In this document: one piece after another, positions 24,632 through 43,330 of the stretch
Layout: the number at the start of each line of letters is the position of its first letter
How positions within the stretch are numbered: position 1 is the stretch's first letter
Position numbers and translations under genes: made by a program
Notes under the pieces: model-generated
Seen by the model: the letters and a program-made list of their open reading frames with translations, nothing else
Database searches by the model: none
Told to the model about the DNA's origin: nothing
Source: Pseudomonadota bacterium
GTDB taxonomy: Bacteria > Desulfobacterota > Desulfobulbia > Desulfobulbales > SURF-16
Assembly: GCA_018822545.1 (NCBI GenBank)
Contig: JAHJKA010000051.1
Coordinates: 12,570-76,569 of the forward strand
Direction of reading: 5' to 3'
Length of the DNA: 64,000 nt

Positions 24632-24880
24632 CCTCCCTAATTCGGTTTTCCTTACACTTTGGGGGAACCCTCTCCTCTCTCAAAAGAAGGTCTCTCGCCT
24701 CTAAATAGCAGCCGATTTCAGCGTGGCGGCTTCGACTGCCCATGCTCTGTCTCCGTTTTTTTCAGCCCCGGAAACAGCACCCTCATCTATTATGATATAA
24801 CACTCACCAGCAGAGGGCAACCCTCACACCTTCTTCTTCACTCCATAAATCCACAAAGAAGGCCGTATGTATTTTAAACA

Positions 24881-24895
24881 GCAAGGGCCATGCCA
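24881..24895 (-). promoter_or_regulatory. sigma54 (-24/-12) promoter
   Basis: The minus strand reads TGGCATGGCCCTTGC(TG). GG and GC are at consensus spacing against TGGCAC-N5-TTGCW. About 250 nt upstream of the ATG at 24631. Confidence 0.75.
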
Positions 24896-25236: not shown

Positions 25237-26583
25237 TTATTGGCAGCGGTTGACAATATTATAGTCAGAAATTTTCTTGCGCAGGGTGGTGGGGGAAATC
25301 TCCAGCTGTTTAGCGGTCTGGGTGATATTCCAGCGCTGCTGATTCAAGACCATTTCCACGTGGCGTTTTTCCGCCTCAGCCAGGGTAACTGGCGCCACCT
25401 GCACTGGACCTTCATGATCGCGGTGGGATTGCTCAAGACATACCTCGGCAGCGGTGAGTACGCTGTCGGTGGCCAGGGCCACCGATCGCGTCAGAACATT
25501 TTCCAGCTCACGAACGTTCCCGGGCCAAGTGTGACTGATCAGTTTCTGCATGGCCTCATCATTAATCATCGGCCGGGAACATTGGAGCTGGCGGGCAATT
25601 TTTTTCAACAGTGAATCAACAAGTTGGGGAATATCACCCGGCCTGTCGCGCAACGGCGGCAGGTAGAGAGTGGAAACGGCAATACGATAAAAAAGATCTT
25701 TTCTGAACTTGCCTTCCTTGACCAGCTTTTCAAGATCCCAATGGGTGGCTGAGACAAAACGGGCCCGGAAAGGAATGGTCTCAAGGCCGCCCACCCGGAC
25801 AAACTCTCCCTCCTGGAGAACGCGCAGGAGCTTCCCTTGCAACCCTAAAGGCATGTCGCCGATCTCGTCAAAAAAAACCGTGCCATCCGCGGCATACTCT
25901 AATTTGCCTATTTTCAGGCGATCAGCCCCGGTAAACGCCCCTTTTTCATGGCCAAAGAACTCTGACTCAAGCAGGGTGGAAACCACGGCCGAGCAGTTGA
26001 TGTCAACAAAGGGCTTATCCGGGTCACGGGCATCATGAAGAATCCGGGCCGCAAGCTCCTTACCTGTGCCGCTTTCCCCCTGGATAAGGACAGTTACCCG
26101 GCTGCGTGAAAGCAGGCCTATTTTCTTATGGAGATCAATAATGTCGGGATGGGTACCTATCATGTTGGGGTAATGATCATCCACAACCAAGGACCCTATC
26201 TGGTCAGGCAAATTTACCTCGTGGCCGCGATGCACTTCCACCCGGGACAACATGGTATAGATGTCATCAAGCTCCAAAGGCTTGCGAAGATAATCAAAGG
26301 CGCCACTGCGCATGGCCTGCACAGCAATAAAATTGTCTGATTCACCCGTCATGATGACCACGGTGGGGTCGCAGGGCAACTCGACAATACTGGGCAAGGC
26401 CTCCAACCCGCTCTGGCCAGGAAGATTAATGTCGAGAAACACCACATCCGGCCGGAATTCTGCAGCCTCGCCAATGCCATTCTCAGCAGAACTTGCCAGA
26501 TGCACCTCATGGCCCTTCAGACCGAGGGGAACCTGGAGGGAGCGGCAAAGCGCCTGATCATCATCAACAATGAGAATTTTCAT
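25237..26583 (-). CDS. NtrC-family sigma54-dependent response regulator (REC-AAA+-Fis HTH)
   Basis: MKILIVDDD...VFLDINLPG (REC), GESGTGKE (Walker A), GAFTGA, C-terminal ITQTAKQLEISPTTLRKKI. Confidence 0.93.
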   Translation of the reverse strand: MKILIVDDDQALCRSLQVPLGLKGHEVHLASSAENGIGEAAEFRPDVVFLDINLPGQSGLEALPSIVELPCDPTVVIMTGESDNFIAVQAMRSGAFDYLRKPLELDDIYTMLSRVEVHRGHEVNLPDQIGSLVVDDHYPNMIGTHPDIIDLHKKIGLLSRSRVTVLIQGESGTGKELAARILHDARDPDKPFVDINCSAVVSTLLESEFFGHEKGAFTGADRLKIGKLEYAADGTVFFDEIGDMPLGLQGKLLRVLQEGEFVRVGGLETIPFRARFVSATHWDLEKLVKEGKFRKDLFYRIAVSTLYLPPLRDRPGDIPQLVDSLLKKIARQLQCSRPMINDEAMQKLISHTWPGNVRELENVLTRSVALATDSVLTAAEVCLEQSHRDHEGPVQVAPVTLAEAEKRHVEMVLNQQRWNITQTAKQLEISPTTLRKKISDYNIVNRCQ

Positions 26584-26924
26584 TGGGGGTCACCCGTAAT
26601 AAGTAGTAACAATATCTCTCTCTCCAACACCCGGAACACAGGATGTCCTAAAATTGCATTGAGGTTCAACATGCTTGAAACTGTACAGAAACTTGTTGAC
26701 TTGGTCAATGTTTGACGATTTTCTCAACTTACGCTACACATCTGTTGCGTGAAAAAACTTCATTTCAAGCACTTACCCGCCACTTTCCATTTGACAGCAG
26801 GGAATGCTATCAGGTAAGAGGGTAAGCAATGGAAAACCTCTCTCAACCATGATTTGCTTTGCAAGTTATGTTCCATTATGCCCACCCCTCCCACCTCTCC
26901 TCACATGCTCACCGTAGCAGAATT

Positions 26925-27053: not shown

Positions 27054-27068
27054 TGGCCCAAAATTTGC
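27054..27068 (+). promoter_or_regulatory. sigma54 (-24/-12) promoter
   Basis: TGGCCCAAAATTTGC(TT), with GG and GC at consensus spacing. About 210 nt upstream of the ATG at 27279. Confidence 0.6.
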
Positions 27069-27278
27069 TTTTTTTAATGTAATTTTATACTCTTAAGAAC
27101 AAGGATCTTAATCTCGACAGCATCAGGAAGATCCAGAAATCTTTATGAAAAGGGCAAGATTGCAGCAAAGAATTGTTAACCGGCATGGTCCTACCATCAG
27201 TTTGCCAAAGAAATAACAGCGACTGTCAAAGACACGCCAGCCTCAAGATTGACCGGTACTCAACGAAGGGATGATTCT

Positions 27279-31405: not shown

Positions 31406-33043
31406 GTGCTTGTCTCGCTGGCCGGTTATTTTATTGCAACCATCGCCAGTTTCTACTCGAATATGGGGCAGTACGACCGCCTCTCCCATCTGGAAGAAAC
31501 ATGGTATCCCATGGCCACTCTGGGCTCCGACATGCTCCACAGCTTCAAGGCCCAAATCGACAAGCATGAGGATGCCTTTCTCACCGGCGAAGAAGAGCTT
31601 TCCGATGAGATCAATGCCCTCAATTTTATTCTGCTCGACAAGTTTGCTAAAATTGAAGAAATTTTGCGCAGCAAGCCCCGGATTCCGGTGAAAATTGCTG
31701 ACATCGAAAAGCTCAAACAGGATTATATCGCCCATCTCAAACTGGCCAAAGACATTGAAACATGGGCCGACGATGCCATTGAACTGACGCCGAAACTGCA
31801 AAAGGAGATCCAGCAGCATGGTCGCCAGCAACGCGATCTGCTTGAACGCTTCACCAGCCTCGACAAAAATTTCTCCAGCTGCTTTATCCAGGAGATTCAG
31901 CGCAACAAGGTCAAAACGCTGCACACCACCTTCTTCCTCGGCTTTCTCTTCCTCCTTGTTCTGCTTTTTGCCACCGCAATCATTGATAAAGTTGCTGACC
32001 GCCTGCTCATCAAACCTCTGGCTACCATCAAGGATAATGTCCGGCGCTTTGCGGTTTCCCAGGATATTATCGAACCCCAAGGGACAAGCGACACAGACGA
32101 GGTAGGGCTTCTGGCCTCGGCCTTCTGGGAAATGACCAAGGACCTCAAGGCCACCACCGTATCGAAAAAATATGTGGACAATATTATCCGCAATATGTCC
32201 GGCGCCCTGGTGGTGCTCAACCCTGAAGGAATTATCCAAAAAATAAACCAGCAAGCAACAGCCCTTTTTGATTATGAGGAAAAGGACCTGCTGGGTCAGC
32301 CGGCAACCCTTCTTTTTGTCGAGGCCAAGGAAAACCCCATCAAGAACCTGAGCCGCCTGGGCAACTGGCCTTTCAAAAATCTTGAGGTGAACTGCCGCAC
32401 CAAGGATGGCCGCATTTTCCCCGCCCATTTTTCTGGATCAGTCATGGATAACGAGGCCGGCAATGTGGTTGGTCTGGTCTGCGTTTTAAACGACATAACC
32501 GAGTTAAAAAATTCCGAGTTGAAACTTAAACAAATGGCGCTTCATGACCCACTCACGGGGCTTGCCAACCGCCATCTCTTTTTTGATCGCCTCGACCTTG
32601 CCACCCACGAGGCAGAACGCAGCGGCGGCAAGTTTGCCTTGCTCTTTCTTGACCTTGATAAATTTAAACCGGTTAATGACACCCTGGGCCACGATATCGG
32701 TGATCTTGTTCTCAAAAATGTCGCCACCAGGTTGCAGAATCTGGTCCGGGCCGGTGATACCGTGGCCCGTATGGGCGGTGACGAGTTCACCATTATTTTA
32801 AATGGCCTCCATTCCGACGAGGATGCTGAAAAGATTGCCGATAAAATCATTCAACGTATTGCTATTCCCTTTACCTTCGGCAATATTTCATGCAGCCTTG
32901 GCGTCAGTATCGGCATCACCCTTTTCCCGGACCACGGCACCCTTGCCGAACAGCTGATTAACAGGGCGGACCAATCCATGTATCTTGCCAAGGCCCAGGG
33001 GAGAAACACCTACTGTGTCTATCAAAATCAAGACCCGAGTTAA
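31406..33043 (+). CDS. Membrane sensor diguanylate cyclase (TM-periplasmic helical domain-TM-HAMP-PAS-GGDEF)
   Basis: RMGGDEFTIIL with an RAGD I-site 5 residues upstream, and HDPLTGLANR. By homology to the next gene the N-terminus probably extends upstream: CTG at 31361 with GGAGG 8 nt before it, otherwise GTG at 31406. Confidence 0.88.
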   Translation: MLVSLAGYFIATIASFYSNMGQYDRLSHLEETWYPMATLGSDMLHSFKAQIDKHEDAFLTGEEELSDEINALNFILLDKFAKIEEILRSKPRIPVKIADIEKLKQDYIAHLKLAKDIETWADDAIELTPKLQKEIQQHGRQQRDLLERFTSLDKNFSSCFIQEIQRNKVKTLHTTFFLGFLFLLVLLFATAIIDKVADRLLIKPLATIKDNVRRFAVSQDIIEPQGTSDTDEVGLLASAFWEMTKDLKATTVSKKYVDNIIRNMSGALVVLNPEGIIQKINQQATALFDYEEKDLLGQPATLLFVEAKENPIKNLSRLGNWPFKNLEVNCRTKDGRIFPAHFSGSVMDNEAGNVVGLVCVLNDITELKNSELKLKQMALHDPLTGLANRHLFFDRLDLATHEAERSGGKFALLFLDLDKFKPVNDTLGHDIGDLVLKNVATRLQNLVRAGDTVARMGGDEFTIILNGLHSDEDAEKIADKIIQRIAIPFTFGNISCSLGVSIGITLFPDHGTLAEQLINRADQSMYLAKAQGRNTYCVYQNQDPS

Positions 33044-33057
33044 ACGAAATTACCACC

Positions 33058-34998
33058 ATGCCCTGTGACAATTTAAAATCTAAAATAGCCAATATCCTCA
33101 GCCGCAGTGGCAGCATTCGCAGCAAGGTGTGGACCTGCGTGCTTATAGCCCTCGTCGGTTACTTTATTGCAACCTTGTCGAGCTTCTACTCCAACAGCCG
33201 TCATGCCACCCGTCTTACGCATTTGCAGAAAATAGAAATGCCTCTGGCCCTGCTCAGCGACCAGAGCCTGCAGGCCTATAAAGACCAGATAGAAAAATAT
33301 GAGAACGCCTTCCTCACCGGCGAGGCTGAACAGGCCATCCAGGGCAATCGTCTCAGCGGCCACATTGTCGAGTATTTTGAAAAAATGCAGGAAATGGCAA
33401 CCAACGACCAGGTCTTTGACCAGGAAAAATATGCCATCGCCAAACTACTGGACAACTATAATGAATTTTCCGACCTGGCCTCGGAAGTATACCTAAGCAC
33501 CCAGGCCATTGAAACATCCATTGATCTGCAGAAAAAAATCCAGGTCCTGGGGAGCATGCAGACTGACATCCTCAACGATCTTCGCCACCTAGCACAACAT
33601 TTCACCAAAAAAGTTGAGGATGAACTCCAAGAACAGCGGCGAAGCGCCCAGATCAACACCCTCTTTCTCGGCGTCCTCTTCGTGGTGGTGCTGGTCACTG
33701 CCATTTTAATCAGCCATTGTTTTGCCAGCCAGCAGCTCATCGAACCTCTGGCCAAGATCCAGACCATGGTCAAGCTCTTTGCCAAAGGCGAGGAGATTTA
33801 CCGCCCCCAACTGGGCAGCGACAAGGATGAGATCAGCAACCTGGCCTTCTCTTTCTGGGAGATGACCCAAGACCTCAAAGACTCCATGGTCTCCCGTGAT
33901 TATGTCGACAGTATTATCAAAAATATGTCCGGCTGCCTCATGGTCCTTACCCCTGGTCTGCAACTCTCGAAGATCAACACCAAGACCTCGTTTCTTCTCG
34001 ACCGCAGTGAAGACCAGCTCCTCGGCCTCAAGGTCACCGAACTCGTCTGTGATGACATGCTGTCGCTCTTTCAAGACAAGGCCATCAAACTCCTGCACAG
34101 GGGAGAGGATGTCACCAACCTGGAAATATGCCTGACAAAAAGAGATGGTAGCAAGATTCCCGTGCTCTTTTCCGGATCGGTGATGCGCAACTCCGACAAT
34201 GTCATTATCGCCCTGATCTGCGTGACCAATGATATTACCGAGCGTAAAAAAACAGAACAGGTTCTGCGCAAAAATGAAATCGAACGGGCCCTGGCCCAAA
34301 GCGCTTCCTTGGCACGGATCGGTGAATTGACCTCGAGCATTGCCCACGAGATGCGCAATCCGCTCTCCTCCATCAAAATGACCATTAAAACCATCGCCCA
34401 GGAACTTGGCACTACGAACCCCACCTTCCATGAACTGGCTACCATTGCCCAGGATCAGTCAAAACGCTTAGAAACCATGCTCAACGATCTGCTGAGCTAC
34501 GGCAAACCCCTCACCCCCAAAGTGGAACGCACCACCTTCCACGAGCTCCTTACCGAGACATTTATTGCCGTGGCCCCAGAGAAAGAGGACAAAAGCGTTA
34601 GCGTGGAGATTACCGACAATCTCAAGGAGATACCCCTTAAGGTGGACAAGGAACTCATGATCCGTGCCCTGTCCAACCTGGCCTTAAACGCTATTCAATG
34701 GTCACCGGCGCGCAGCACCATCTATATAGCAAGCCGTCTCATTTCCATTGTGGGCTCACCCGACCAGGCCATCATCGAGGTGCGCGACAGCGGCCCGGGC
34801 TTAGACAGCAAGAAGAGCCACCGCCTCTTTCAGCCTTTCATGACCACCAGACCTGGCGGTACCGGTCTCGGCCTTGCCAATGTCCGCAAGATTGTCGAAT
34901 ATCACGGCGGCACCGTAAGCGGTTGCAACTATGGCAGCGGCGGCGCCCTGTTTACCATCACCATCCCCATTGTTTCCCCCCATCTCTCCCTTTCCTGA
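33058..34998 (+). CDS. Membrane sensor histidine kinase (TM-periplasmic helical domain-TM-HAMP-PAS-HisKA-HATPase)
   Basis: SIAHEMRNPLSSI (H-box), NLALNAIQW (N-box), DSGPGL, GTGLGLA. The N-terminal ~380 aa are paralogous to the preceding cyclase. Confidence 0.9.
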   Translation: MPCDNLKSKIANILSRSGSIRSKVWTCVLIALVGYFIATLSSFYSNSRHATRLTHLQKIEMPLALLSDQSLQAYKDQIEKYENAFLTGEAEQAIQGNRLSGHIVEYFEKMQEMATNDQVFDQEKYAIAKLLDNYNEFSDLASEVYLSTQAIETSIDLQKKIQVLGSMQTDILNDLRHLAQHFTKKVEDELQEQRRSAQINTLFLGVLFVVVLVTAILISHCFASQQLIEPLAKIQTMVKLFAKGEEIYRPQLGSDKDEISNLAFSFWEMTQDLKDSMVSRDYVDSIIKNMSGCLMVLTPGLQLSKINTKTSFLLDRSEDQLLGLKVTELVCDDMLSLFQDKAIKLLHRGEDVTNLEICLTKRDGSKIPVLFSGSVMRNSDNVIIALICVTNDITERKKTEQVLRKNEIERALAQSASLARIGELTSSIAHEMRNPLSSIKMTIKTIAQELGTTNPTFHELATIAQDQSKRLETMLNDLLSYGKPLTPKVERTTFHELLTETFIAVAPEKEDKSVSVEITDNLKEIPLKVDKELMIRALSNLALNAIQWSPARSTIYIASRLISIVGSPDQAIIEVRDSGPGLDSKKSHRLFQPFMTTRPGGTGLGLANVRKIVEYHGGTVSGCNYGSGGALFTITIPIVSPHLSLS

Positions 34999-35498
34999 CA
35001 TTCCGCCCAAAATATTTGCCTGGCGCACCCGATACCATGCTGATTTCCATCTTGAGCCAATCGGTGCCCCATAGCACCTGGTTGCGCACAGCCTTACAGC
35101 GTGACTTAATCACACAAGGCGTGCGTCCTTTCCCCCCGGACAAGACACTAGGGCAAAATGCCGCATAACCAACTGTTGGCCCCTCCCCCCCTCAGAAAAT
35201 GAGCAGCCGTCTTCTAAAAAAACAGGCGAATCCCTCTCCCAAAATTCTTCAATATACATATAATGCATTATTTCTCATTGAAAACACGTCATTATTATTG
35301 GGAGCAACCTAAGTCCTCAATATGCGGTACAGCTTTTGCTATTTCCAAATCATAAAGAGAATATGCATCGATAGGCGCAAAAAACGTACTACGTCTTATC
35401 CGCCCCAGACATGGCCACACAACGACGATCATCTGCAAGACTTTAAGGATGAAGGCTGCCGCTACCCCACGCCATACTGCGAAAAAGAGAGGCAAACG

Positions 35499-35852
35499 AT
35501 GATGGATAACACATGTTCCAATGGGAAGGCAGGGACTGGGGAGCAACAACTCTCGCCCGCCATCAGGTTGAAAAATCTGCGTGATAAAGAATGGTCCATA
35601 GGAAGCGGTCAATGCCCGCACTGCCGAGGTGTAAATGAGGCCTGGCACGGCCACCCTCTCTATACAGACCCCGGCAAGATAGGTCACAGCACCTGGTGCC
35701 AGCTTGCGGCGACCATAAAGGAGTTAGGCGAAACACCTCTCTATGTAGGGACCTACCGATCAGAAAGAAAATTTGAGACCTACTGGAAGACATTTATTGA
35801 TTTGCAAGGCTTTGAACACCGACTTTTAGGAAGTAGACGACTTAACAGTTAA
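35499..35852 (+). CDS. Hypothetical Cys/His-containing protein
   Basis: ORF with GAGAGG upstream of ATGATG. Contains CPHC...H...C. No recognisable family. An opposite-strand ORF overlaps it, so coding status is uncertain. Confidence 0.35.
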   Translation: MMDNTCSNGKAGTGEQQLSPAIRLKNLRDKEWSIGSGQCPHCRGVNEAWHGHPLYTDPGKIGHSTWCQLAATIKELGETPLYVGTYRSERKFETYWKTFIDLQGFEHRLLGSRRLNS

Positions 35853-35917
35853 CGCGGTGGAAAAACCTCCACCCCTGACTTTTTTGCATTTCCATCCTGT
35901 TTGCCCTTCTCTCCCCC

Positions 35918-38068
35918 ATGAGTGAGCACACAGGGTGGAAATGCTCCTTTCACTGCACAAAAAATGCTGTGTTAGCAAACCTAAAGAGAAGGAGAACCGC
36001 TCTGAAGAATCTAGCCGAACGCCGCAATCAGTCAAGGATGCCCCTGAGCCTCAAATTTCGCCTGCGCGAGAGTTCCCAAAACCTCTCCTACGCTGCAGAA
36101 AGCTGCGACATACACGCCCACGGCATTTCAGTCTTAACCGATGCCCCTTTGCAGCCGAATATGCAGGTTGAACTTTGGCCTGAAGATGAGATGGGGATGC
36201 ACATCAAGGATTATGCCGAAGGGACCCATTATGTGCATGGTGATGTGTGCTGGGCCAAAAACGGCCGGTGTGACAACAAAACAACCTACGGCATCTCCTT
36301 CAAACGCAAGATTGACTGGCCGGTGCCCATGCAGGCCTTAACCCAGAAACTGGCATTTCCACTTTCCCAAAACGACACCCCCTCGCAATTTGTCCTGGAC
36401 GCCATGGTGGACGGCGTTTTCAGTGTTGATGCCGATTGGCGGATAACTACCTTCAATAAAGCTGCCGAAGAATTGACAGGGTGGAAAAAAGAAGACGCTA
36501 TTGGACTGCATTGCCACGAGGTCTTTAAGTCCAACACCTGTGGTGATGGCTGCGTGTTGGCGGAAAGCATGAGAAATTTGGTGCCTGTGGAAAATCGCTC
36601 CGTGTTCATTACCCATGCCAAGGGCAATCGAATCGGCGCCACCATCAGCGCCACCCCAATCATCAATAAAGAAAATGAAATCATCGGCGGTGTCCAGGTC
36701 TTCCGGGAGGCCAAATCCCTCTTGGGCCGCGCCGTAATTCTTGATAATGTCGCCGACGGCATCTTCACCGTAGACACCCAGTGGCGCATCACCTCCTTCA
36801 ACAAAGCGGCTGAAAAAATCACCGGCGTATCCCAACAAAAAGCCATCGGCAGTTACTGCAGCGATATCTTCCACAGCAGCATCTGCGGCAAGTCCTGCGC
36901 CATTGCCGCCAGTATCAGCAGTGGCCAGCCGGACAGCAACCGCTGCATCCAGATTCGTAATGCCGACAATGAGCAGGTGCCCGTGAGCATCTCGGCCGCC
37001 CCCCTCTATGACAACCAGGGCAACCTTATTGGCGGTGTCGAGACCTTCCGTGATCTGCGCCCCAGCAAAACCCAGCAATATGGCTGCTGCAAACAAAAAC
37101 AGATAGGCGATATTATCAGCAACAGCCCGGCCATGAGCCGCATCTTTGATATCCTGCCCCGCATCGCCCAAAGCGACAGCAATGTCCTTATCCTTGGCGA
37201 ATCAGGAACGGGCAAGGAGGTGCTGGCCAAGACCCTGCACAAGTTAAGTGATCGCAGTGACGGGCCCTTGATCACCGTCAACTGCGCCGCCTTGCCCGAC
37301 ACCCTGCTGGAATCCGAGCTGTTCGGCTGCAAGGCCGGGGCCTATACCGATGCCAAATCAGACCGGCTGGGCCGTATCGCCGCTGCCGAGGGTGGCACCC
37401 TCTTTCTCGATGAAATCGGTGAGATATCACTGGCCATGCAGGTCAAACTCCTCCGGGTTTTAGAGACCAAACTTTATGAACCCCTGGGCTCAAATACTTC
37501 CATCCCGGCCAACATCCGTATTCTGGCTGCCACCAATGGCAATCTTGAAGAGCTGATGCATAAAGGCCTGTTCAGGGAGGATCTCTTTTACCGCCTCAAC
37601 GTAGTTAAAATAGAAATTCCCACCCTGCGGGATCGCATCCATGATATCCCCTTGCTCCTTGAGCATTTCATTGAAAAATTCAACGCCGAGAAAAACATGG
37701 ATATCGGCGGCCTGACCGACGAGACCCTGCGCATTCTTATGCAGTATGATTTCCCAGGCAACATCCGTGAACTCCAGAACATTCTCGAATATGCCTACAT
37801 TCTCTGCAAAGGCGGCCTGATCTATCCGGAACATCTCCCTGCCACGATGAAGCCCAGCACGCCAACAGCTTCAGCACACAACCTGCCCTGCACCGAACCG
37901 AGATGTCTGGAAGAAATAGAAAAACACGCAATTTTCGACGCCCTGAAGCGTAACAAATGGAAACGGATGAGAACCTGCCGGGAGCTTGGCATTTCCAAGG
38001 ATACCCTGCGCCGGAAAATCTCGCGCTACGAATTAGACGACAAGTTACAGGAAGAGAAGGTGGCTTAA
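35918..38068 (+). CDS. sigma54-dependent activator with N-terminal PilZ-like domain and two Cys-rich PAS domains (PilZ-PAS-PAS-AAA+-HTH)
   Basis: ERRNQSR...DIHAHGISV (PilZ-like RxxxR / DxSxxG with S->H), two PAS domains, GESGTGKE, GAYTDA (variant of GAFTGA), C-terminal CRELGISKDTLRRKI. Confidence 0.88.
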   Translation: MSEHTGWKCSFHCTKNAVLANLKRRRTALKNLAERRNQSRMPLSLKFRLRESSQNLSYAAESCDIHAHGISVLTDAPLQPNMQVELWPEDEMGMHIKDYAEGTHYVHGDVCWAKNGRCDNKTTYGISFKRKIDWPVPMQALTQKLAFPLSQNDTPSQFVLDAMVDGVFSVDADWRITTFNKAAEELTGWKKEDAIGLHCHEVFKSNTCGDGCVLAESMRNLVPVENRSVFITHAKGNRIGATISATPIINKENEIIGGVQVFREAKSLLGRAVILDNVADGIFTVDTQWRITSFNKAAEKITGVSQQKAIGSYCSDIFHSSICGKSCAIAASISSGQPDSNRCIQIRNADNEQVPVSISAAPLYDNQGNLIGGVETFRDLRPSKTQQYGCCKQKQIGDIISNSPAMSRIFDILPRIAQSDSNVLILGESGTGKEVLAKTLHKLSDRSDGPLITVNCAALPDTLLESELFGCKAGAYTDAKSDRLGRIAAAEGGTLFLDEIGEISLAMQVKLLRVLETKLYEPLGSNTSIPANIRILAATNGNLEELMHKGLFREDLFYRLNVVKIEIPTLRDRIHDIPLLLEHFIEKFNAEKNMDIGGLTDETLRILMQYDFPGNIRELQNILEYAYILCKGGLIYPEHLPATMKPSTPTASAHNLPCTEPRCLEEIEKHAIFDALKRNKWKRMRTCRELGISKDTLRRKISRYELDDKLQEEKVA

Positions 38069-38080
38069 AGAAGAATTTGT

Positions 38081-38175
38081 GAAGTTGAGCAATAAGAAGC
38101 TACGCAGGAAGAATGGTTCCGAGTTAAGAAAAAGCACCTCCTTCTCACATTCTCGCCTTCTTATTGCTCAACTTC
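38081..38175. repeat. Perfect 19-bp inverted repeat with a 57-nt spacer
   Basis: GAAGTTGAGCAATAAGAAG (38081-38099) / CTTCTTATTGCTCAACTTC (38157-38175). It lies between the activator stop (38068) and the PilZ gene SD (38181). Confidence 0.9.
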
Positions 38176-38198
38176 TTAACAAGAGGAACAACAAGATC

Positions 38199-38564
38199 AT
38201 GGTTGTAGGTATGAATGAACGTCGGAACACCCAGCGAATCAAGGCCCAGGAGGATATTTTTGTCCAGGTTAATGACTGTCTGTGCAAGGTTCACGATATC
38301 AGTCTCGACGGTATCGCCTTTGACTACCAGGTCAAACCCGACACCCATATCAACGGCACTGCCACCCTGGAAATCTTCTTTATGTCCGGCCCTATCCTCT
38401 ACATTGAAAATATTCCCTATACCATTGTCGCCGACATTCCCCTTTTAGAAAAAAATGGTCGATCAGCTGTGATGCATCGCCGGGCCTGCACCCGTTTTGA
38501 CGATCTTAACTTCCGCCAGATTGTCAGCTTCAACCATCTCATGGCTGACCATCTCCTCGGCTAA
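38199..38564 (+). CDS. Stand-alone PilZ-domain c-di-GMP receptor
   Basis: Canonical ERRNTQRIK ... VHDISLDGIAF (RxxxR and DxSxxG). ATG at 38199 with AAGAGGA upstream. The GTG-initiated extension to 38079 runs through the inverted repeat and is not credible. Confidence 0.8.
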   Translation: MVVGMNERRNTQRIKAQEDIFVQVNDCLCKVHDISLDGIAFDYQVKPDTHINGTATLEIFFMSGPILYIENIPYTIVADIPLLEKNGRSAVMHRRACTRFDDLNFRQIVSFNHLMADHLLG

Positions 38565-38828
38565 CCCCCCTTCCTCCTAACATACCGGCCTTCTTCCGTC
38601 AGTCCAACCCCTCATCATTTTATCCCTGCCTGCTTTCCGTAACACCTCAATTTTCTTGACCTAAAGCCCTTAAAATAGCTACCATTCGGATGTATTTGCT
38701 GTTTTTTGTCGCATTGGTCATGACCTGCGCCCACTGTTCTCCCTCCTTCAGGAATTTGCCTCGTGTCGCCGCCTGCGGTCAACAGAGACCCCACGGTGAT
38801 AACCTCGGCCAGCCAACTTATGTGAACT

Positions 38829-39581
38829 ATGCGCTTTTCTCTCTTGCTGTTGCTCTTTTTTTCACTGCTGTTTTGCCTGCCTGGCTGCGGCGACAATCCC
38901 GATCATAAAATAACGGTTCTTGCCGGTCGGGGCCTGAGAAAACCAATGGAGGAGGTGCGCACCGCCTTTATTGCAAAATATGGCATTCAGACCCATATCG
39001 TCTATGGCGGTTCCGGCACCCTGCTTGCCACCATGCAAAGCTCAAACCAAGGCGATGTCTTTGTGCCCGGCTCCCTCTATACCCTGGAAAAGGCCGGTGA
39101 CATGATCATCCGCCATGTGCCGGTGGCCCTCCACACCCCGGTGATCGCAGTGGCCGTGACCCATCCACCATTAATACAATCCTTCGCTGACCTAGCCAAA
39201 CCAGGCGTCAAGCTGGGCATTGCCCACAAAGAAATGGCGGCCCTTGGGCGCAGCAGTGAAGAAATCTTTACGGCATCTGGCCAGTACCAAGAAATCATGG
39301 CCAATGTCATCATCAAGACCCAAAACGTCACGGTGCTCCTTGATCATCTGGCGCACAAGGAATTAGACGCTGCTCTGCTCTGGTCCGACATGCTGCTCTG
39401 GCCCGAGGCCCAAGGTCTTGCTGCCATTACCATCCCTCCGGAATTTAATAAAATTAAAGAGATCCATGCCGGCCTGCTGCGCCAGAGTACCATGCCAAAG
39501 GAAGCAGGGCTCTTTGTTGACTTCATGGCCCAGGAAGGCGCTGTTATTTTCCACAACCACGGCTTTGAGGCTATTCCATGA
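38829..39581 (+). CDS. ModA/SBP_bac_11-like periplasmic solute-binding lipoprotein
   Basis: Lipobox [23 protein letters not shown]...[26 protein letters not shown] follows the molybdate/tungstate-type SBP pattern. The stop overlaps the next start (ATGA). Confidence 0.7.
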
Positions 39582-42307
39582 AAATCCGCCATAAAATATT
39601 CGGCGGTTTCCTGCTCATCTCCTTTTTTATTGTGGTCATCGCGTTCAGCAGCCTCATTATCCAAAACAGACTCACCTCGCACATTGAGAAAATAGGCGGT
39701 CATCAACTGCCCGGCACCGTGGTGATGACCAAGCTCTATGCCAGTCTTTTCGAAATCAGAACCTTGCTGTCGCGCTACGCCGCTTTTCATGATCCCCACG
39801 TCAAGGAGAGATTGGAAGACGCCCTTATTGAACTGGCCCAGATTCGCACTGTCCATCTCATTCTCCACGGCTATCACCAAGACCATCTTGCCGAGACAGA
39901 AAACATTCTGGATCATTTCACCAGTGAAATCAGCAAATTCATCCTCCTTACAGAAAAAGGGGCCGCCCAAGCCGAACTCTCAAGGGTGGGGGCAAAGATT
40001 GACCGTCTGGCCGATGCCTATGCTGAATTTGCAGCGCCAATCATCCAGGATATGATGACGGACTCCCGCACAGACCTGGTCCAGACAGTGATAAAGGCCC
40101 GAACATCAAGCGAACTTCTCCTGGGCTTGAGCATTCTCCTTATTGTCCTGGCTGTCACCTTTTCCCTCATGCTGGCCAGGCGTATTGCCGACCCGGTTTT
40201 AAAGCTGAAAGAGGCCGTTCTCAAAATTGCCCAGGGTGATTTGAATGTGCGGGTTTTGCCTGGCACTTCCCGTGATGAAATTGACGAACTGGGTTCTGCC
40301 ATCAACAAGATGAGCAATGATCTCCAAGAGATGACCGCCTCCCGCGATGCCTTTGCCGAGGAAGCCATGGGTAAAGCGCGCCAGGCCGAGGCTGCCAACA
40401 TTGCCAAGAGTGAATTTCTGGCCAGCATGAGCCATGAAATCAGGACCCCCATGAACGCCATTCTCGGCATGGCCGATCTCCTCTGGGACTCCCCCCTGGA
40501 GCCCCAGCAACGCCGCTATGTTGAGCTTTTCCGCTCCGCCGGGGTGAATCTCTTGAACCTCTTAAACGACATCCTTGACCTCTCCAAGGTAGAGGCAGGC
40601 AAGCTGGAAATCGAAGAGGCCGGCTTTGATCTCTGCCACGAGGTGGGCAAGATCTGCGAAGTCATGGCCCTGCGCGCCCACGAAAAAGGTCTGGAACTCA
40701 TCAGCTACGTCAGAAGCGATGTGCCGGCCTGGGTGGTGGGTGATGCCAATAGGCTCAAACAGATACTGGCCAATCTCATCGGCAACGCCATCAAATTCAC
40801 CAGTCACGGCGAGGTGGTGGTCAACGTCAGCAAGGGTGACATCCGCACACAAGGCGATAAAGAGATCGCCACCATCCTGTTCAGCGTCACCGACACCGGC
40901 ATCGGTGTGCCCGCAGAAAAACAAAAGATTATCTTTGATGATTTTACCCAGGCCGATGCCTCCACCACCCGCGAGTATGGCGGCACCGGTCTCGGCCTTG
41001 CCATTTGCCAAAAACTCATTGCCAAGATGGGCGGCACCATCAGCTTAACCAGCACTGAGGGGCAAGGCAGCACCTTCCACTTCATGTTACCCTTCCAGTA
41101 TCTCCCGGCAATTGAAGGTGAACATCAAGGGGCCATGCCTGTTGTTGATCTGAGCGGCATGAAAGTGCTGATCATTGATGACAATAACACCAACCGTCTT
41201 ATTCTTCGCCATATCCTCCAGGAAGAAGGGGCTGAGACCCATGACGCTGCCAGCGGCCGGGAAGGGCTTGCATTGATCAAACAGAGCCGTGCACGTCAGC
41301 AGCCCTTTGATCTCCTTCTCTTGGATGGACGGATGCCAGGCATGGACGGCTTTGCGGTGGCCGAATACCTCAGCCGCCACCCTGACCGTGAAAATCTGAC
41401 CATCATGATGCTCTCCTCCGACAACCAGGCGGGCGATATAAAACGCTGCAAGGCCTTAGGGGTTGCCGAATATCTTGTCAAACCGGTGCAAAGACCGGCC
41501 CTGCTGGAGGCCATTGCCCTGGCCTTATGGGATAAAGGTGACGCTGACACCATGCAAAGCCCACCAAGCCCCCAGAAGCACCCAGCCGGTTCTTTCCGCA
41601 TCCTCCTGGCCGAGGATTCACAGGAGAATCAATTTCTGGTCCAGGCCTTTTTGGAGGGCAGCCCTTATCAGCTTGATTTTGCTGAAAACGGCGTGCTGGC
41701 TGTGGAGAAATTTATTGCCAATCGCTACGATCTGGTCCTCATGGACATCCAGATGCCCCGCAAAGACGGCTACAGCGCCAGCCGTGAAATCCGCGCCTTT
41801 GAGCAAAAAACCAAACAGCCTGCCACGCCGATCATTGCCCTCACCGCCCATGCCCTCGTGGAGCATAAACAAAAGAGTCTGGAGGCCGGCTGCAACGAAC
41901 ATCTTGCCAAGCCGATCAGCAAAGATCTCCTCCTTGCCACCTTGGCCAAATACTGCACAGCGCCCCTGAACATACCGCTCTCGAACCCACCGGTCACGCC
42001 CCCAGACAAAGACCCCGAAACGGTGATGATCGACGAGTCCCTCCGTCCCCTGATCCCCAGATACCTTTCCCACGTCCGCCACGACTTAGAGCAACTCAGG
42101 GCAGCAGTGGCAAGCCTGGATTTTGACACGGCCCGCATGATCAGCCACAAACTCAAAGGTTCCGGCGGCGGCTACGGTTTTGACTTGATCACCACGGTGG
42201 GCAGAGAAATGGAAGAGGGTGCCAACCAAGAAAACCCGCAAACAATCGAGAATGGCCTTGCAAAAATCCGCACCTACCTGGACACTATCCATATTGAGTA
42301 CCAATAA
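39578..42307 (+). CDS. Hybrid sensor histidine kinase (TM-helical sensor-TM-HAMP-HisKA-HATPase-REC-REC-Hpt)
   Basis: [13 protein letters not shown] (H-box), [21 protein letters not shown], two REC domains ([24 protein letters not shown]), Hpt [13 protein letters not shown]. Confidence 0.92.
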
Positions 42308-42334
42308 TTTGCTTTCGTATTACAATTGCAGCCT

Positions 42335-43330
42335 ATGAACTTCACTCATAAAAAAATACTCATCATCGATGACTCCGCTGACAGCAGAACCTTGACAGGT
42401 CATATCCTGCGCCAGGAAGGGTATTGCAATATCCTCGAGGCAGATTCGGCCCAGGAGGCCTTTGATATCATAGGCCTAGACAAATCATTTGACGAAGCTG
42501 ATCTCGCTCCGTTTCTTGACCTTATCCTTTTGGACATTGTCATGCCGGAGATGGACGGTATCGAAACCTGCATCAAACTCAAAGCATCACCCCAAACAGC
42601 CGACGTCCCCATCATCATGGTCACGGCCGACACCCAGGATGCCAGCCTGCAGCGCGCCTTTGACCGAGGTGCCGTTGACTATGTCACCAAACCCATTAAC
42701 CGGGTGGAACTCTGTGCCCGGGTCAAATCAGCCCTGCTCTTAAAAGAGGAGATGGATCGCCGCATGGAGCTTGCTAAGGACCTGGCTAAGGCAAACAAAA
42801 TCCTGCAACGCACCGCCCTTACCGATGGCCTCACCGGCATTGCCAACCGCCGTTATTTTGACGAATTTCTCGACAATGAATGGCGCCGATGCCGCCGCGA
42901 GCAACTGCCCGTTACCCTCTGCCTGATGGACATTGATTTTTTTAAAGCCTATAACGACGCCTATGGCCATCTTAAAGGCGATGAATGCCTCAAGAAGGTG
43001 GCCGCCATCCTGGCGGCCAGTGTCAAACGACCCGGCGATCTGGTGGCCCGCTACGGCGGCGAGGAGTTTGCCATCGTCCTTTCCGAGACCCCGGAGGCCG
43101 GCGGCTGTGCCGTGGCCAAAAGAGTGATGAAGGAGGTGGCAGCCCGTAATATCATCCATGAACAGTCAACAATCAGCGACCGAATCACCTTGAGCTTCGG
43201 GGTGGCCATGCTCACTCCCAAAGCGGCGACGCCGGTCAATGATCTCATCGCCCAGGCCGACCGGGCCTTGTACGAAGCCAAGAAAATGGGCCGCAACCGA
43301 ATCAGCTGCCCCGGCCTGAAAAAAATCTGA
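42335..43330 (+). CDS. PleD-like response regulator diguanylate cyclase (REC-GGDEF)
   Basis: KILIIDD...LLDIVMPEMDG (REC), TDGLTGIANRR, RYGGEEFAIVL with an RPGD I-site. Confidence 0.92.
   Translation: MNFTHKKILIIDDSADSRTLTGHILRQEGYCNILEADSAQEAFDIIGLDKSFDEADLAPFLDLILLDIVMPEMDGIETCIKLKASPQTADVPIIMVTADTQDASLQRAFDRGAVDYVTKPINRVELCARVKSALLLKEEMDRRMELAKDLAKANKILQRTALTDGLTGIANRRYFDEFLDNEWRRCRREQLPVTLCLMDIDFFKAYNDAYGHLKGDECLKKVAAILAASVKRPGDLVARYGGEEFAIVLSETPEAGGCAVAKRVMKEVAARNIIHEQSTISDRITLSFGVAMLTPKAATPVNDLIAQADRALYEAKKMGRNRISCPGLKKI

Follow-up and report, generated by a model that had tools for sequence, protein, structure and literature searches.

A predicted sigma54-dependent activator that joins an N-terminal PilZ domain to two OrpR-type PAS modules in a Desulfobulbales genome

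In a 64,000-nucleotide stretch of contig JAHJKA010000051.1 (assembly GCA_018822545.1), which as a whole is called the window here, we analysed the gene at positions 35918-38068 of the forward strand. It is a 716-residue open reading frame (ORF) whose presence and translation agree with those given in a preliminary description of this DNA. Our preferred reading, held with moderate confidence, is that the gene encodes a functional enhancer-binding protein (EBP) that would activate sigma54-dependent transcription. In this protein, an OrpR-like iron-sulfur (Fe-S) PAS module appears to be duplicated, the motor carries a loop of the GA(F/Y)TDA type and a PilZ domain is fused to the N-terminus. A wider proposal is put forward tentatively, as possible but rather doubtful: that this one EBP integrates cyclic di-GMP (c-di-GMP), through a His-variant PilZ domain, with redox state, through two [4Fe-4S] PAS domains, and activates the sigma54 promoters of adjacent cytochrome modules for extracellular electron transfer. 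The parts of the architecture claimed in the preliminary description, namely a PilZ-like N-terminus, two PAS domains, an AAA+ core and a Fis-type helix-turn-helix (HTH), were all recovered by Pfam. The PAS domains span residues ~160-262 and ~273-380 (numbered in the 716-residue ORF), the sigma54 AAA+ core with its lid lies at 37112-37876 of the forward strand (Sigma54_activat PF00158, 221.6 bits, residues 399-566; AAA_lid_14, 92.3 bits), and the DNA-binding domain at 37907-38029 of the same strand (HTH_8 PF02954, 40.2 bits, residues 664-704). Because every match to a named EBP in NCBIfam (PrdR, AtoC, NifA and others) was below threshold, the activator falls outside every curated equivalog.

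By Pfam profile and by fold, the N-terminus holds a genuine PilZ domain. Its assignment had been left in the preliminary description to analysis with a hidden Markov model (HMM), and Pfam PilZ (PF07238) accepted it above the curated cut-off of 22.5 bits, scoring 24.6 bits in the full protein, 28.5 bits in the N-terminal 161 residues and 24.7 bits in a 688-residue form of the protein discussed below. The domain occupies 36017-36313 of the forward strand, that is, residues 34-132 of the 716-residue ORF or 6-104 of the 688-residue protein. An AlphaFold2 model of residues 1-161, built from an alignment of 29 orthologs, reached a mean predicted local distance difference test (pLDDT) score of 73.6, with values of 83-93 in the barrel core, and displayed a six-stranded beta-barrel (strands within 46-127) followed by a helix at 138-144. 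When this model was compared with the PDB by Foldseek, the top 26 matches were all PilZ domains (best E = 2.3e-4), including BcsA, VCA0042/PlzD, the P. aeruginosa PilZ entry 4xrn, YcgR, PlzA, MotI, MrkH, PP4397 and PA0012. Since the fold and the Pfam HMM detect PilZ while a sequence profile does not, we regard the domain as divergent but genuine.

The RRxxxR arm of the domain (RRNQSR, 36020-36037, forward strand, residues 35-40; ERRNQSR being residues 34-40) aligns from HMM position 1. In 40 family members the N-terminus is part of the protein as called, and 38 of these have the arm intact. The second PilZ motif, D-I-H-A-H-G at 36107-36124 of the forward strand (residues 64-69), does not match the canonical [D/N]hSxxG: the Asp, the hydrophobic residue and the Gly are kept, and the Ser is replaced by His. 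Both the arm and this replacement had been reported for the N-terminus in the preliminary description, and the replacement proved to be family-wide. Across 49 family members, the third position of the motif is H in 35, N in 8, D in 4 and S in 2, always a polar residue able to form hydrogen bonds, and the D/N and G are conserved; examples with the canonical Ser are P0129 (RDVSPLG) and P0133 (VDISAHG). In an alignment of 30 proteins, R40, P42, F47, S62, G69, W87 and P88 do not vary, and conservation is 90% or higher at R35, R36 and L45. As judged from these alignments, the S-to-H change is a family trait and not the lesion of a single copy.

Each of the two PAS domains carries a cysteine triad, CHEVFKSNTCGDGC in PAS1 (C-x-E-x6-C-x3-C, 36512-36553, forward strand) and CSDIFHSSICGKSC in PAS2 (C-x-D-x6-C-x3-C, 36857-36898, forward strand), with all three cysteines of both triads 100% conserved in 29 orthologs. 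A further invariant Cys is found in PAS2 (SNRCIQ, 36935-36952), and PAS1 holds an invariant His. The C-x8-C-x3-C spacing with D/E at C+2 is rare in the genome, where only 6 of the 4517 ORFs with 150 residues or more contain it; of the 31 EBP ORFs, 5 show the spacing. Every one of the 120 nearest homologs has the motif (D/E at C+2 in 87% of motifs), usually in two copies in the PilZ-type proteins and in three in multi-PAS paralogs of ~800 residues. In OrpR, C52, C61 and C65 together with D/E54 are needed for signal sensing by a PAS domain with a redox-sensitive [4Fe-4S] cluster, and the protein is made constitutive by deletion of this domain or by Cys-to-Ser replacement (PMC8359166). Each PAS domain of the activator bears this OrpR-type [4Fe-4S] signature at identical spacing, and the pair would supply a second, redox, input. 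Two multi-PAS EBPs elsewhere in the genome, at G000:C64:71213-73630 and C69:15731-18241 (both on the reverse strand), contain three and four OrpR-type C-x8-C-x3-C PAS modules. Because one of them carries a GAFTDA loop and the other GAFTGA, the Fe-S-type PAS module can also occur without a TDA loop.

The motor itself is well preserved, with Walker A (GESGTGK, 37196-37216), Walker B (LFLDEIGE, 37400-37423), the FREDLFYRL motif (37571-37597) and sensor II (GNIRELQN, 37757-37780) all intact on the forward strand. At the GAFTGA position, the L1 loop, through which EBPs contact sigma54, reads GAYTDA (37337-37354, forward strand, residues 474-479), which keeps the aromatic residue and the Thr and exchanges G for D at position 5. 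The preliminary description had read this loop correctly but placed it one nucleotide too early, at 37336-37353. Among the 120 nearest homologs, the loop is GAFTDA in 90, GAYTDA in 29 and GAFTNA in one, with GAFTGA in none. The genome to which the window belongs (3.34 Mb, ~85% complete) encodes about 31 sigma54-type AAA+ ORFs, of which 5 have xxxTDA and most, among them a REC-type activator at 25237-26583 of the window, have GAFTGA. The rpoN gene is present (Sigma54_DBD, 216 bits, at G000:C69). Two EBPs with assigned sigma54 regulons in D. vulgaris, DVU2106/OrpR and DVU2275, have GAFTDA and GAYTDA loops, and both variants were counted among the activation-compatible ones by Kazakov et al. (PMC4641369). 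OrpR (DVU2106, GAFTDA) is absolutely required for sigma54-dependent transcription of orp (PMC8359166). By these comparisons, GAYTDA is an ordinary, clade-wide loop of a predicted activating type.

Further copies of the gene were observed in the same genome, outside the window. One of them, at G000:C25:115438-117261 (forward strand), is a degenerate paralog with an open frame of 608 residues; it has the same PilZ domain (DERRNFTRMP..., TDIHASG) and two Cys-triad PAS domains, a destroyed L1 loop (LFGASVLKNGGAIPLG), DQ for DE in Walker B and no HTH. This protein could be a partner without DNA binding, or a titrator, of functional paralogs. A third paralog at C6:2-1921 has a GAYTDA loop and is interrupted by the contig end, and a fourth match to the N-terminal domain lies at C81:36448-36834. 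In the metagenomic ortholog P0125 (715 residues), the full PilZ-PAS-PAS-AAA-HTH order is kept and the loop is shortened to GADATGD, its aromatic residue and Thr gone; this is a second, independent loss of the loop in the family.

Six related loci (cited below by L numbers) were fetched, and the start was compared between the window and five close loci. In all six loci so compared, an invariant AAGGAG with variable flanks, a Shine-Dalgarno (SD) sequence at 35989-35994 of the forward strand in the window, is followed after 7 nucleotides by an in-frame CTG that precedes the RR of the arm by exactly six codons. Identity between loci amounts to 30% in the 36 nucleotides upstream of the SD sequence, which is the random level, and to 69% in the 36 nucleotides from the CTG, where the differences show third-position variation. 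The ATG at 35918, from which the preliminary description had begun the ORF, is probably not the start. The sequence upstream of the SD sequence is unconserved, a 4-nucleotide indel takes this ATG out of frame in L002, the homologous ATG of L008 runs into a stop, and in L005 the arm is not preceded by any canonical in-frame start. We consider it very likely that the arm is translated and, with less assurance, probable that translation begins at the CTG at 36002-36004. The most probable coding sequence then covers 36002-38068 of the forward strand and specifies 688 residues beginning MKNLAERRNQSRMPL, and translation probably omits the first 28 residues of the 716-residue ORF.

A start at the internal ATG at 36038 (MPLSLKF), which the preliminary description had named as a possible refutation, would give a protein without the RxxxR arm and without c-di-GMP binding in the PilZ manner. 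Gene callers have chosen such a start: 9 of the 49 family members were called without the arm, and eight close orthologs (675-676 residues) start at MPL. Upstream of it, moreover, a canonical start codon with a good SD sequence is lacking. However, an SD sequence is absent before ATG 36038 in every locus, and the frame upstream is open and encodes the arm in each of these loci, as in every related locus fetched. The three arm arginines are unchanged across six loci, yet 4, 3 and 5 different codons are used for them; moreover, distant orthologs have A, V or L in place of Met41 and are called from 5-10 residues before the RR. With the arm under purifying selection at the protein level and an SD sequence plus CTG six codons upstream of it, we judge the internal start improbable. 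About half of the close orthologs seem to have been truncated by gene callers at the internal Met, which hides the ligand-binding arm, and the conserved CTG start would explain why. Least probable of all, in our estimate, is that GAYTDA prevents engagement of sigma54 so that the protein acts as a repressor or titrator, a question raised in the preliminary description from the loop variant. Two positions do differ from GAFTGA, no sigma54 interaction was detected for Dickeya VfmH (GAFTDA), whose authors leave the effect of the G-to-D change open (PMC10714721), and truly degenerate paralogs, the C25 copy and P0125, exist in the family. Yet the aromatic residue and Thr of the loop are retained, loops of the GA(F/Y)TDA or GAFTNA form are common to all 120 nearest homologs, OrpR is a proven activator with GAFTDA, and the listing of GAFTDA and GAYTDA as activation-compatible by Kazakov et al. 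(PMC4641369) points the same way. The ATPase motifs and the HTH are intact as well: the C25 paralog lost loop, Walker B Glu and HTH together, whereas the copy in the window lost none of them. The reading as a repressor or titrator is therefore unsupported.

Binding of c-di-GMP by the PilZ domain is plausible, with the motif evidence leaning slightly in its favour, and a c-di-GMP input to the predicted sigma54 activator is a reasonable proposal because c-di-GMP enzymes and sigma54-type promoters surround the gene. Clearly less probable, though far ahead of the two alternatives above, is that the domain has lost nucleotide binding through the S-to-H change and general divergence and serves either as an adaptor between proteins or as a regulatory module of purely structural function; control would then be exerted by the PAS (redox) domains alone or by partners, for example the small PilZ protein encoded downstream. 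Loss of binding would fit the 47 of 49 family members without the canonical Ser and a Pfam score that barely exceeds the cut-off, and PilZ adaptors without binding are well known (10.1101/814665; PMC7288161). It accords less well with the arm, the most strongly conserved part of the domain, since ligand binding is the sole known role of RRxxxR. R40, P42 and G69 are invariant, R35 and R36 nearly so, and the second motif retains its D/N, hydrophobic residue and G, with a polar third position that is S in some members. According to Galperin and Chou (10.1101/814665), PilZ domains within fusion proteins generally keep binding. Several points nonetheless weigh against our reading of a ligand-responsive PilZ-headed activator. 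The Ser of [D/N]hSxxG, replaced here, touches the ligand in solved complexes (review PMC7288161); PlpA is a reported non-binder of c-di-GMP with intact motifs, and MXAN_2902 of M. xanthus, a PilZ-containing EBP, is a predicted non-binder whose deletion has no developmental phenotype (PMC8316039). Our literature search found no paper with biochemistry on any PilZ-EBP, and a sequence profile of the N-terminal domain found no PilZ chain in the PDB. OrpR is the closest characterised relative by motif spacing and loop type, not by an alignment with DVU2106. CTG start codons are rare, and as the AAGGAG overlaps Arg codons (AGA AGG AGA) in the longer form of the protein, its invariance could in part be a coding one. 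Among the sigma54-type promoters described next, no shared inverted repeat or upstream activator site was found, and the target promoters of the activator are candidates only.

The preliminary description had counted three sigma54 promoters in the window. An exact TGGCAC-N5-TTGC is found nowhere in it, and loose matches with up to two mismatches occur at chance (101 observed against 88.8 +/- 8.0 expected); nevertheless, four intergenic, correctly oriented GG-N10-GC elements are present, three of which are retained in relatives. The element CGGTACAGCTTTTGCT (GG-N10-GC) at 35325-35340 of the forward strand agrees with the consensus at 9 of 12 positions and heads an operon of a small ORF, the PilZ-EBP gene and the small PilZ gene. 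The loci L002, L006, L007 and L008 keep it in front of the ortholog, and Thiovibrio (L004) has it as TGGTACCGTTCTTGCT, these being all loci examined; it also forms a conserved island in a 4-locus alignment that also contains conserved blocks upstream of it. Because of this retention, the PilZ-EBP gene itself appears to be sigma54-dependent, with either its own product or the REC-type activator as a possible regulator. A divergent pair, TGGAACATAACTTGCA at 26860-26875 (reverse strand) and TGGCCCAAAATTTGCT at 27054-27069 (forward strand), lies between the REC-type activator and a redoxin-TPR/cytochrome module and is kept almost letter for letter in L008. The fourth element, at 24880-24895 of the reverse strand, is an intergenic GG-N10-GC whose site is covered by none of the related loci.

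Between the promoter at 35325 and the activator lies a 117-residue ORF (35499-35852, forward strand) with a CPHC motif and several His and Trp residues, preceded by GAGAGG 6 nucleotides upstream of its ATG. It has no match in Pfam. Small genes of 117, 119 and 153 residues occupy the same place in L002, L007 and L008, and none is present in Thiovibrio. A terminator-like hairpin at 35856-35873 was considered as an operon boundary and rejected, its stretch being deleted in L002. A nucleotide block at 35888-35965 (TTGCATTTCCATCCTG...CTCTCCCCCATGAGTG...ACAGGGTGGAAATGCTCCTTT) is conserved in the window, L002 and L007. Because its frames differ between loci and a stop interrupts it in L008, the block is not conserved as protein-coding sequence; it is a putative promoter or leader element some 40-110 nucleotides upstream of the CTG. 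A sigma54 promoter immediately before ATG 35918 was discarded, as the TTGCAT found there is without a GG at -24. No RNA element or riboswitch was detected by Rfam in 34900-38900 at E <= 0.1.

Downstream of the activator, a gene for a small probable PilZ protein of 117 residues with RRNTQR and DISLDG (38211-38564, forward strand) is conserved in L002, L003 and L007. The preliminary description had taken it as a stand-alone canonical PilZ protein: the ERRNTQR and DISLDG motifs are indeed there, but the Pfam PilZ scores (21.0 bits in the window, 22.3 in L002, 20.3 in L007; range 19.8-22.3) fall just under the cut-off of 22.5. An AlphaFold2 model from a 3-sequence alignment had a mean pLDDT of 39, too low for use. 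Further downstream come a solute-binding protein, a hybrid kinase, a REC-GGDEF cyclase, additional kinases and, at 54742, a REC-HD-GYP protein. The REC-GGDEF gene lies at 42326-43330 of the forward strand, and its product has GGEEF, an RPGD I-site and the canonical Asp; in L002 and L007 it comes immediately after the small PilZ gene. The intervening pair in the window, an SBP_bac_11 solute-binding protein and a HAMP-HisKA-REC-REC-Hpt hybrid kinase at 38829-42307, is absent from this place in both loci and looks like an insertion specific to the window genome.

Upstream on the same strand are genes for a redoxin-TPR protein, a multihaem cytochrome, an NHL propeller, a small PBP-like protein, a cyclase and a kinase. 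The cyclase (31406-33043, forward strand) is a PAS-GGDEF protein (Pfam GGDEF, 168.7 bits) with a GGDEF motif, an RAGD I-site and the canonical specificity Asp, and by these motifs it is a likely local source of c-di-GMP. Production of cGAMP in place of c-di-GMP was considered and rejected, because the Hypr-GGDEF specificity position holds the canonical Asp (Glu in Thiovibrio) in the two GGDEF proteins encoded here and in their orthologs. The kinase (33058-34998, forward strand) has the order PAS-HisKA-HATPase by Pfam and shares with the cyclase a module of ~380 residues made of transmembrane segment, sensor, HAMP and PAS (40% identity over 381 residues, E = 4e-69); in this way, one cue may be divided between two branches, one through c-di-GMP and one through phosphorylation. 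The activator stays linked to the redoxin/cytochrome/NHL/PBP/cyclase/kinase block in L002, L007 and L008 (81-87% identity) and, in convergent orientation, in Thiovibrio sp. JS02 (L004, 62% identity). In L005 and L006, the linkage to the redoxin-to-kinase block is not kept.

The N-terminal domain has a narrow distribution. A scan of 1.84 billion cluster representatives gave only 15 matches at E <= 0.001, which comprise ortholog fragments, one PilZ-PAS-PAS-EBP of 715 residues whose loop is broken and a small number of PilZ-PAS proteins (396-531 residues) whose C-terminal regions lack annotation. Of 301 genomes from the same order, 40 encode the domain; it is confined to two families (24 of 39 and 15 of 43 genomes) and found in 0 of 15 other families sampled; nearly all of the open frames bearing it there measure 680-760 residues. 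As sampled, the activator family is restricted to two families of one order, Desulfobulbales by the names of the homologs. The metagenomic proteins P0130, P0131 and P0132 combine the same PilZ subtype (RRxxxR and D-h-N/H-x-x-G) with PAS and a C-terminus of ~250 residues that has no Pfam match and might be kinase-like, and the PilZ-PAS module appears to be reused outside EBPs.

We propose that, by analogy with OrpR, the N-terminal sensor block would keep the AAA+ ring inactive until the signals are right. The two PAS Fe-S clusters would report redox potential, and the PilZ domain, binding with RRxxxR and D-h-(H/N/S/D)-x-x-G, would read the c-di-GMP that the adjacent PAS-GGDEF and REC-GGDEF cyclases supply. 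The hexamer would then remodel sigma54-RNA polymerase at GG-N10-GC promoters, the candidate targets being its own operon promoter at 35325 and the promoters of the neighbouring cytochrome and redoxin modules. The kinase that shares the sensor of the cyclase plausibly feeds the neighbouring REC-type activator, and a single external cue could in this manner reach sigma54 promoters through a phosphorylation branch and a c-di-GMP branch. The known routes of c-di-GMP run through AAA+ or receiver-like sites on sigma54 activators, with PilZ gating of transcription in MrkH-type factors only; a PilZ-headed EBP with an intact arm beside likely cyclases would, if this proposal is true, open a third one. 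As the first PilZ-gated sigma54 activator to be demonstrated, it would imply that the canonical Ser of the PilZ motif is replaceable by His, Asn or Asp, and it would be a clean system in which to study how a PilZ domain governs the building of an AAA+ ring. The duplication of the OrpR-type Fe-S PAS module suggests a single protein that integrates redox state with the level of a second messenger. As the activator adjoins genes for cytochrome nanowires and extracellular electron transfer, the proposal bears on when sulfur-cycling electroactive bacteria build such structures.

The predicted activator resembles OrpR (DVU2106) of Desulfovibrio vulgaris Hildenborough in the C-x8-C-x3-C of its PAS domains with D/E at C+2 (PMC8359166), the GAFTDA-type L1 loop (PMC4641369), the AAA+ core, the Fis-type HTH and the host, an anaerobic sulfur/sulfate bacterium. 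In contrast, OrpR has one PAS domain and no PilZ domain, while the window protein has two Fe-S-type PAS domains and an N-terminal PilZ domain, Y for F in the loop, and a context of cytochrome and c-di-GMP genes instead of orp genes. With FleQ, FlrA and VpsR (also EpsI/Nla24), it would share a direct action of c-di-GMP on an NtrC-type AAA+ factor, but FleQ, FlrA and VpsR bind the ligand at AAA+ or receiver-like sites (in FleQ, LFRS / R-N / ExxxR) and not through PilZ (PMC10333796; PMC7288161). MrkH of Klebsiella, one of the Foldseek matches, is alike in that PilZ gates transcription directly. It differs in being an xPilZ-PilZ protein with no AAA+ domain, and it is not known to be sigma54-dependent. 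The canonical PilZ receptors (the BcsA C-terminus, PlzD/VCA0042, YcgR and 4xrn) have in common with the window domain a barrel with a short helix, an RRxxxR arm and a D-h-x-x-x-G turn; in the window domain the Ser is His (N, D or S in relatives), and the kinship is detected only by the Pfam HMM and the fold. MXAN_2902 likewise unites PilZ and a sigma54 EBP in a single polypeptide; by description, its PilZ domain is a predicted non-binder, whereas the family described here keeps RRxxxR and the D/N, hydrophobic residue and G of the second motif. The PilZ-EBP architecture was thus already known from MXAN_2902, and what is new is the combination of an intact-arm PilZ domain with duplicated Fe-S-type PAS domains beside likely cyclases.

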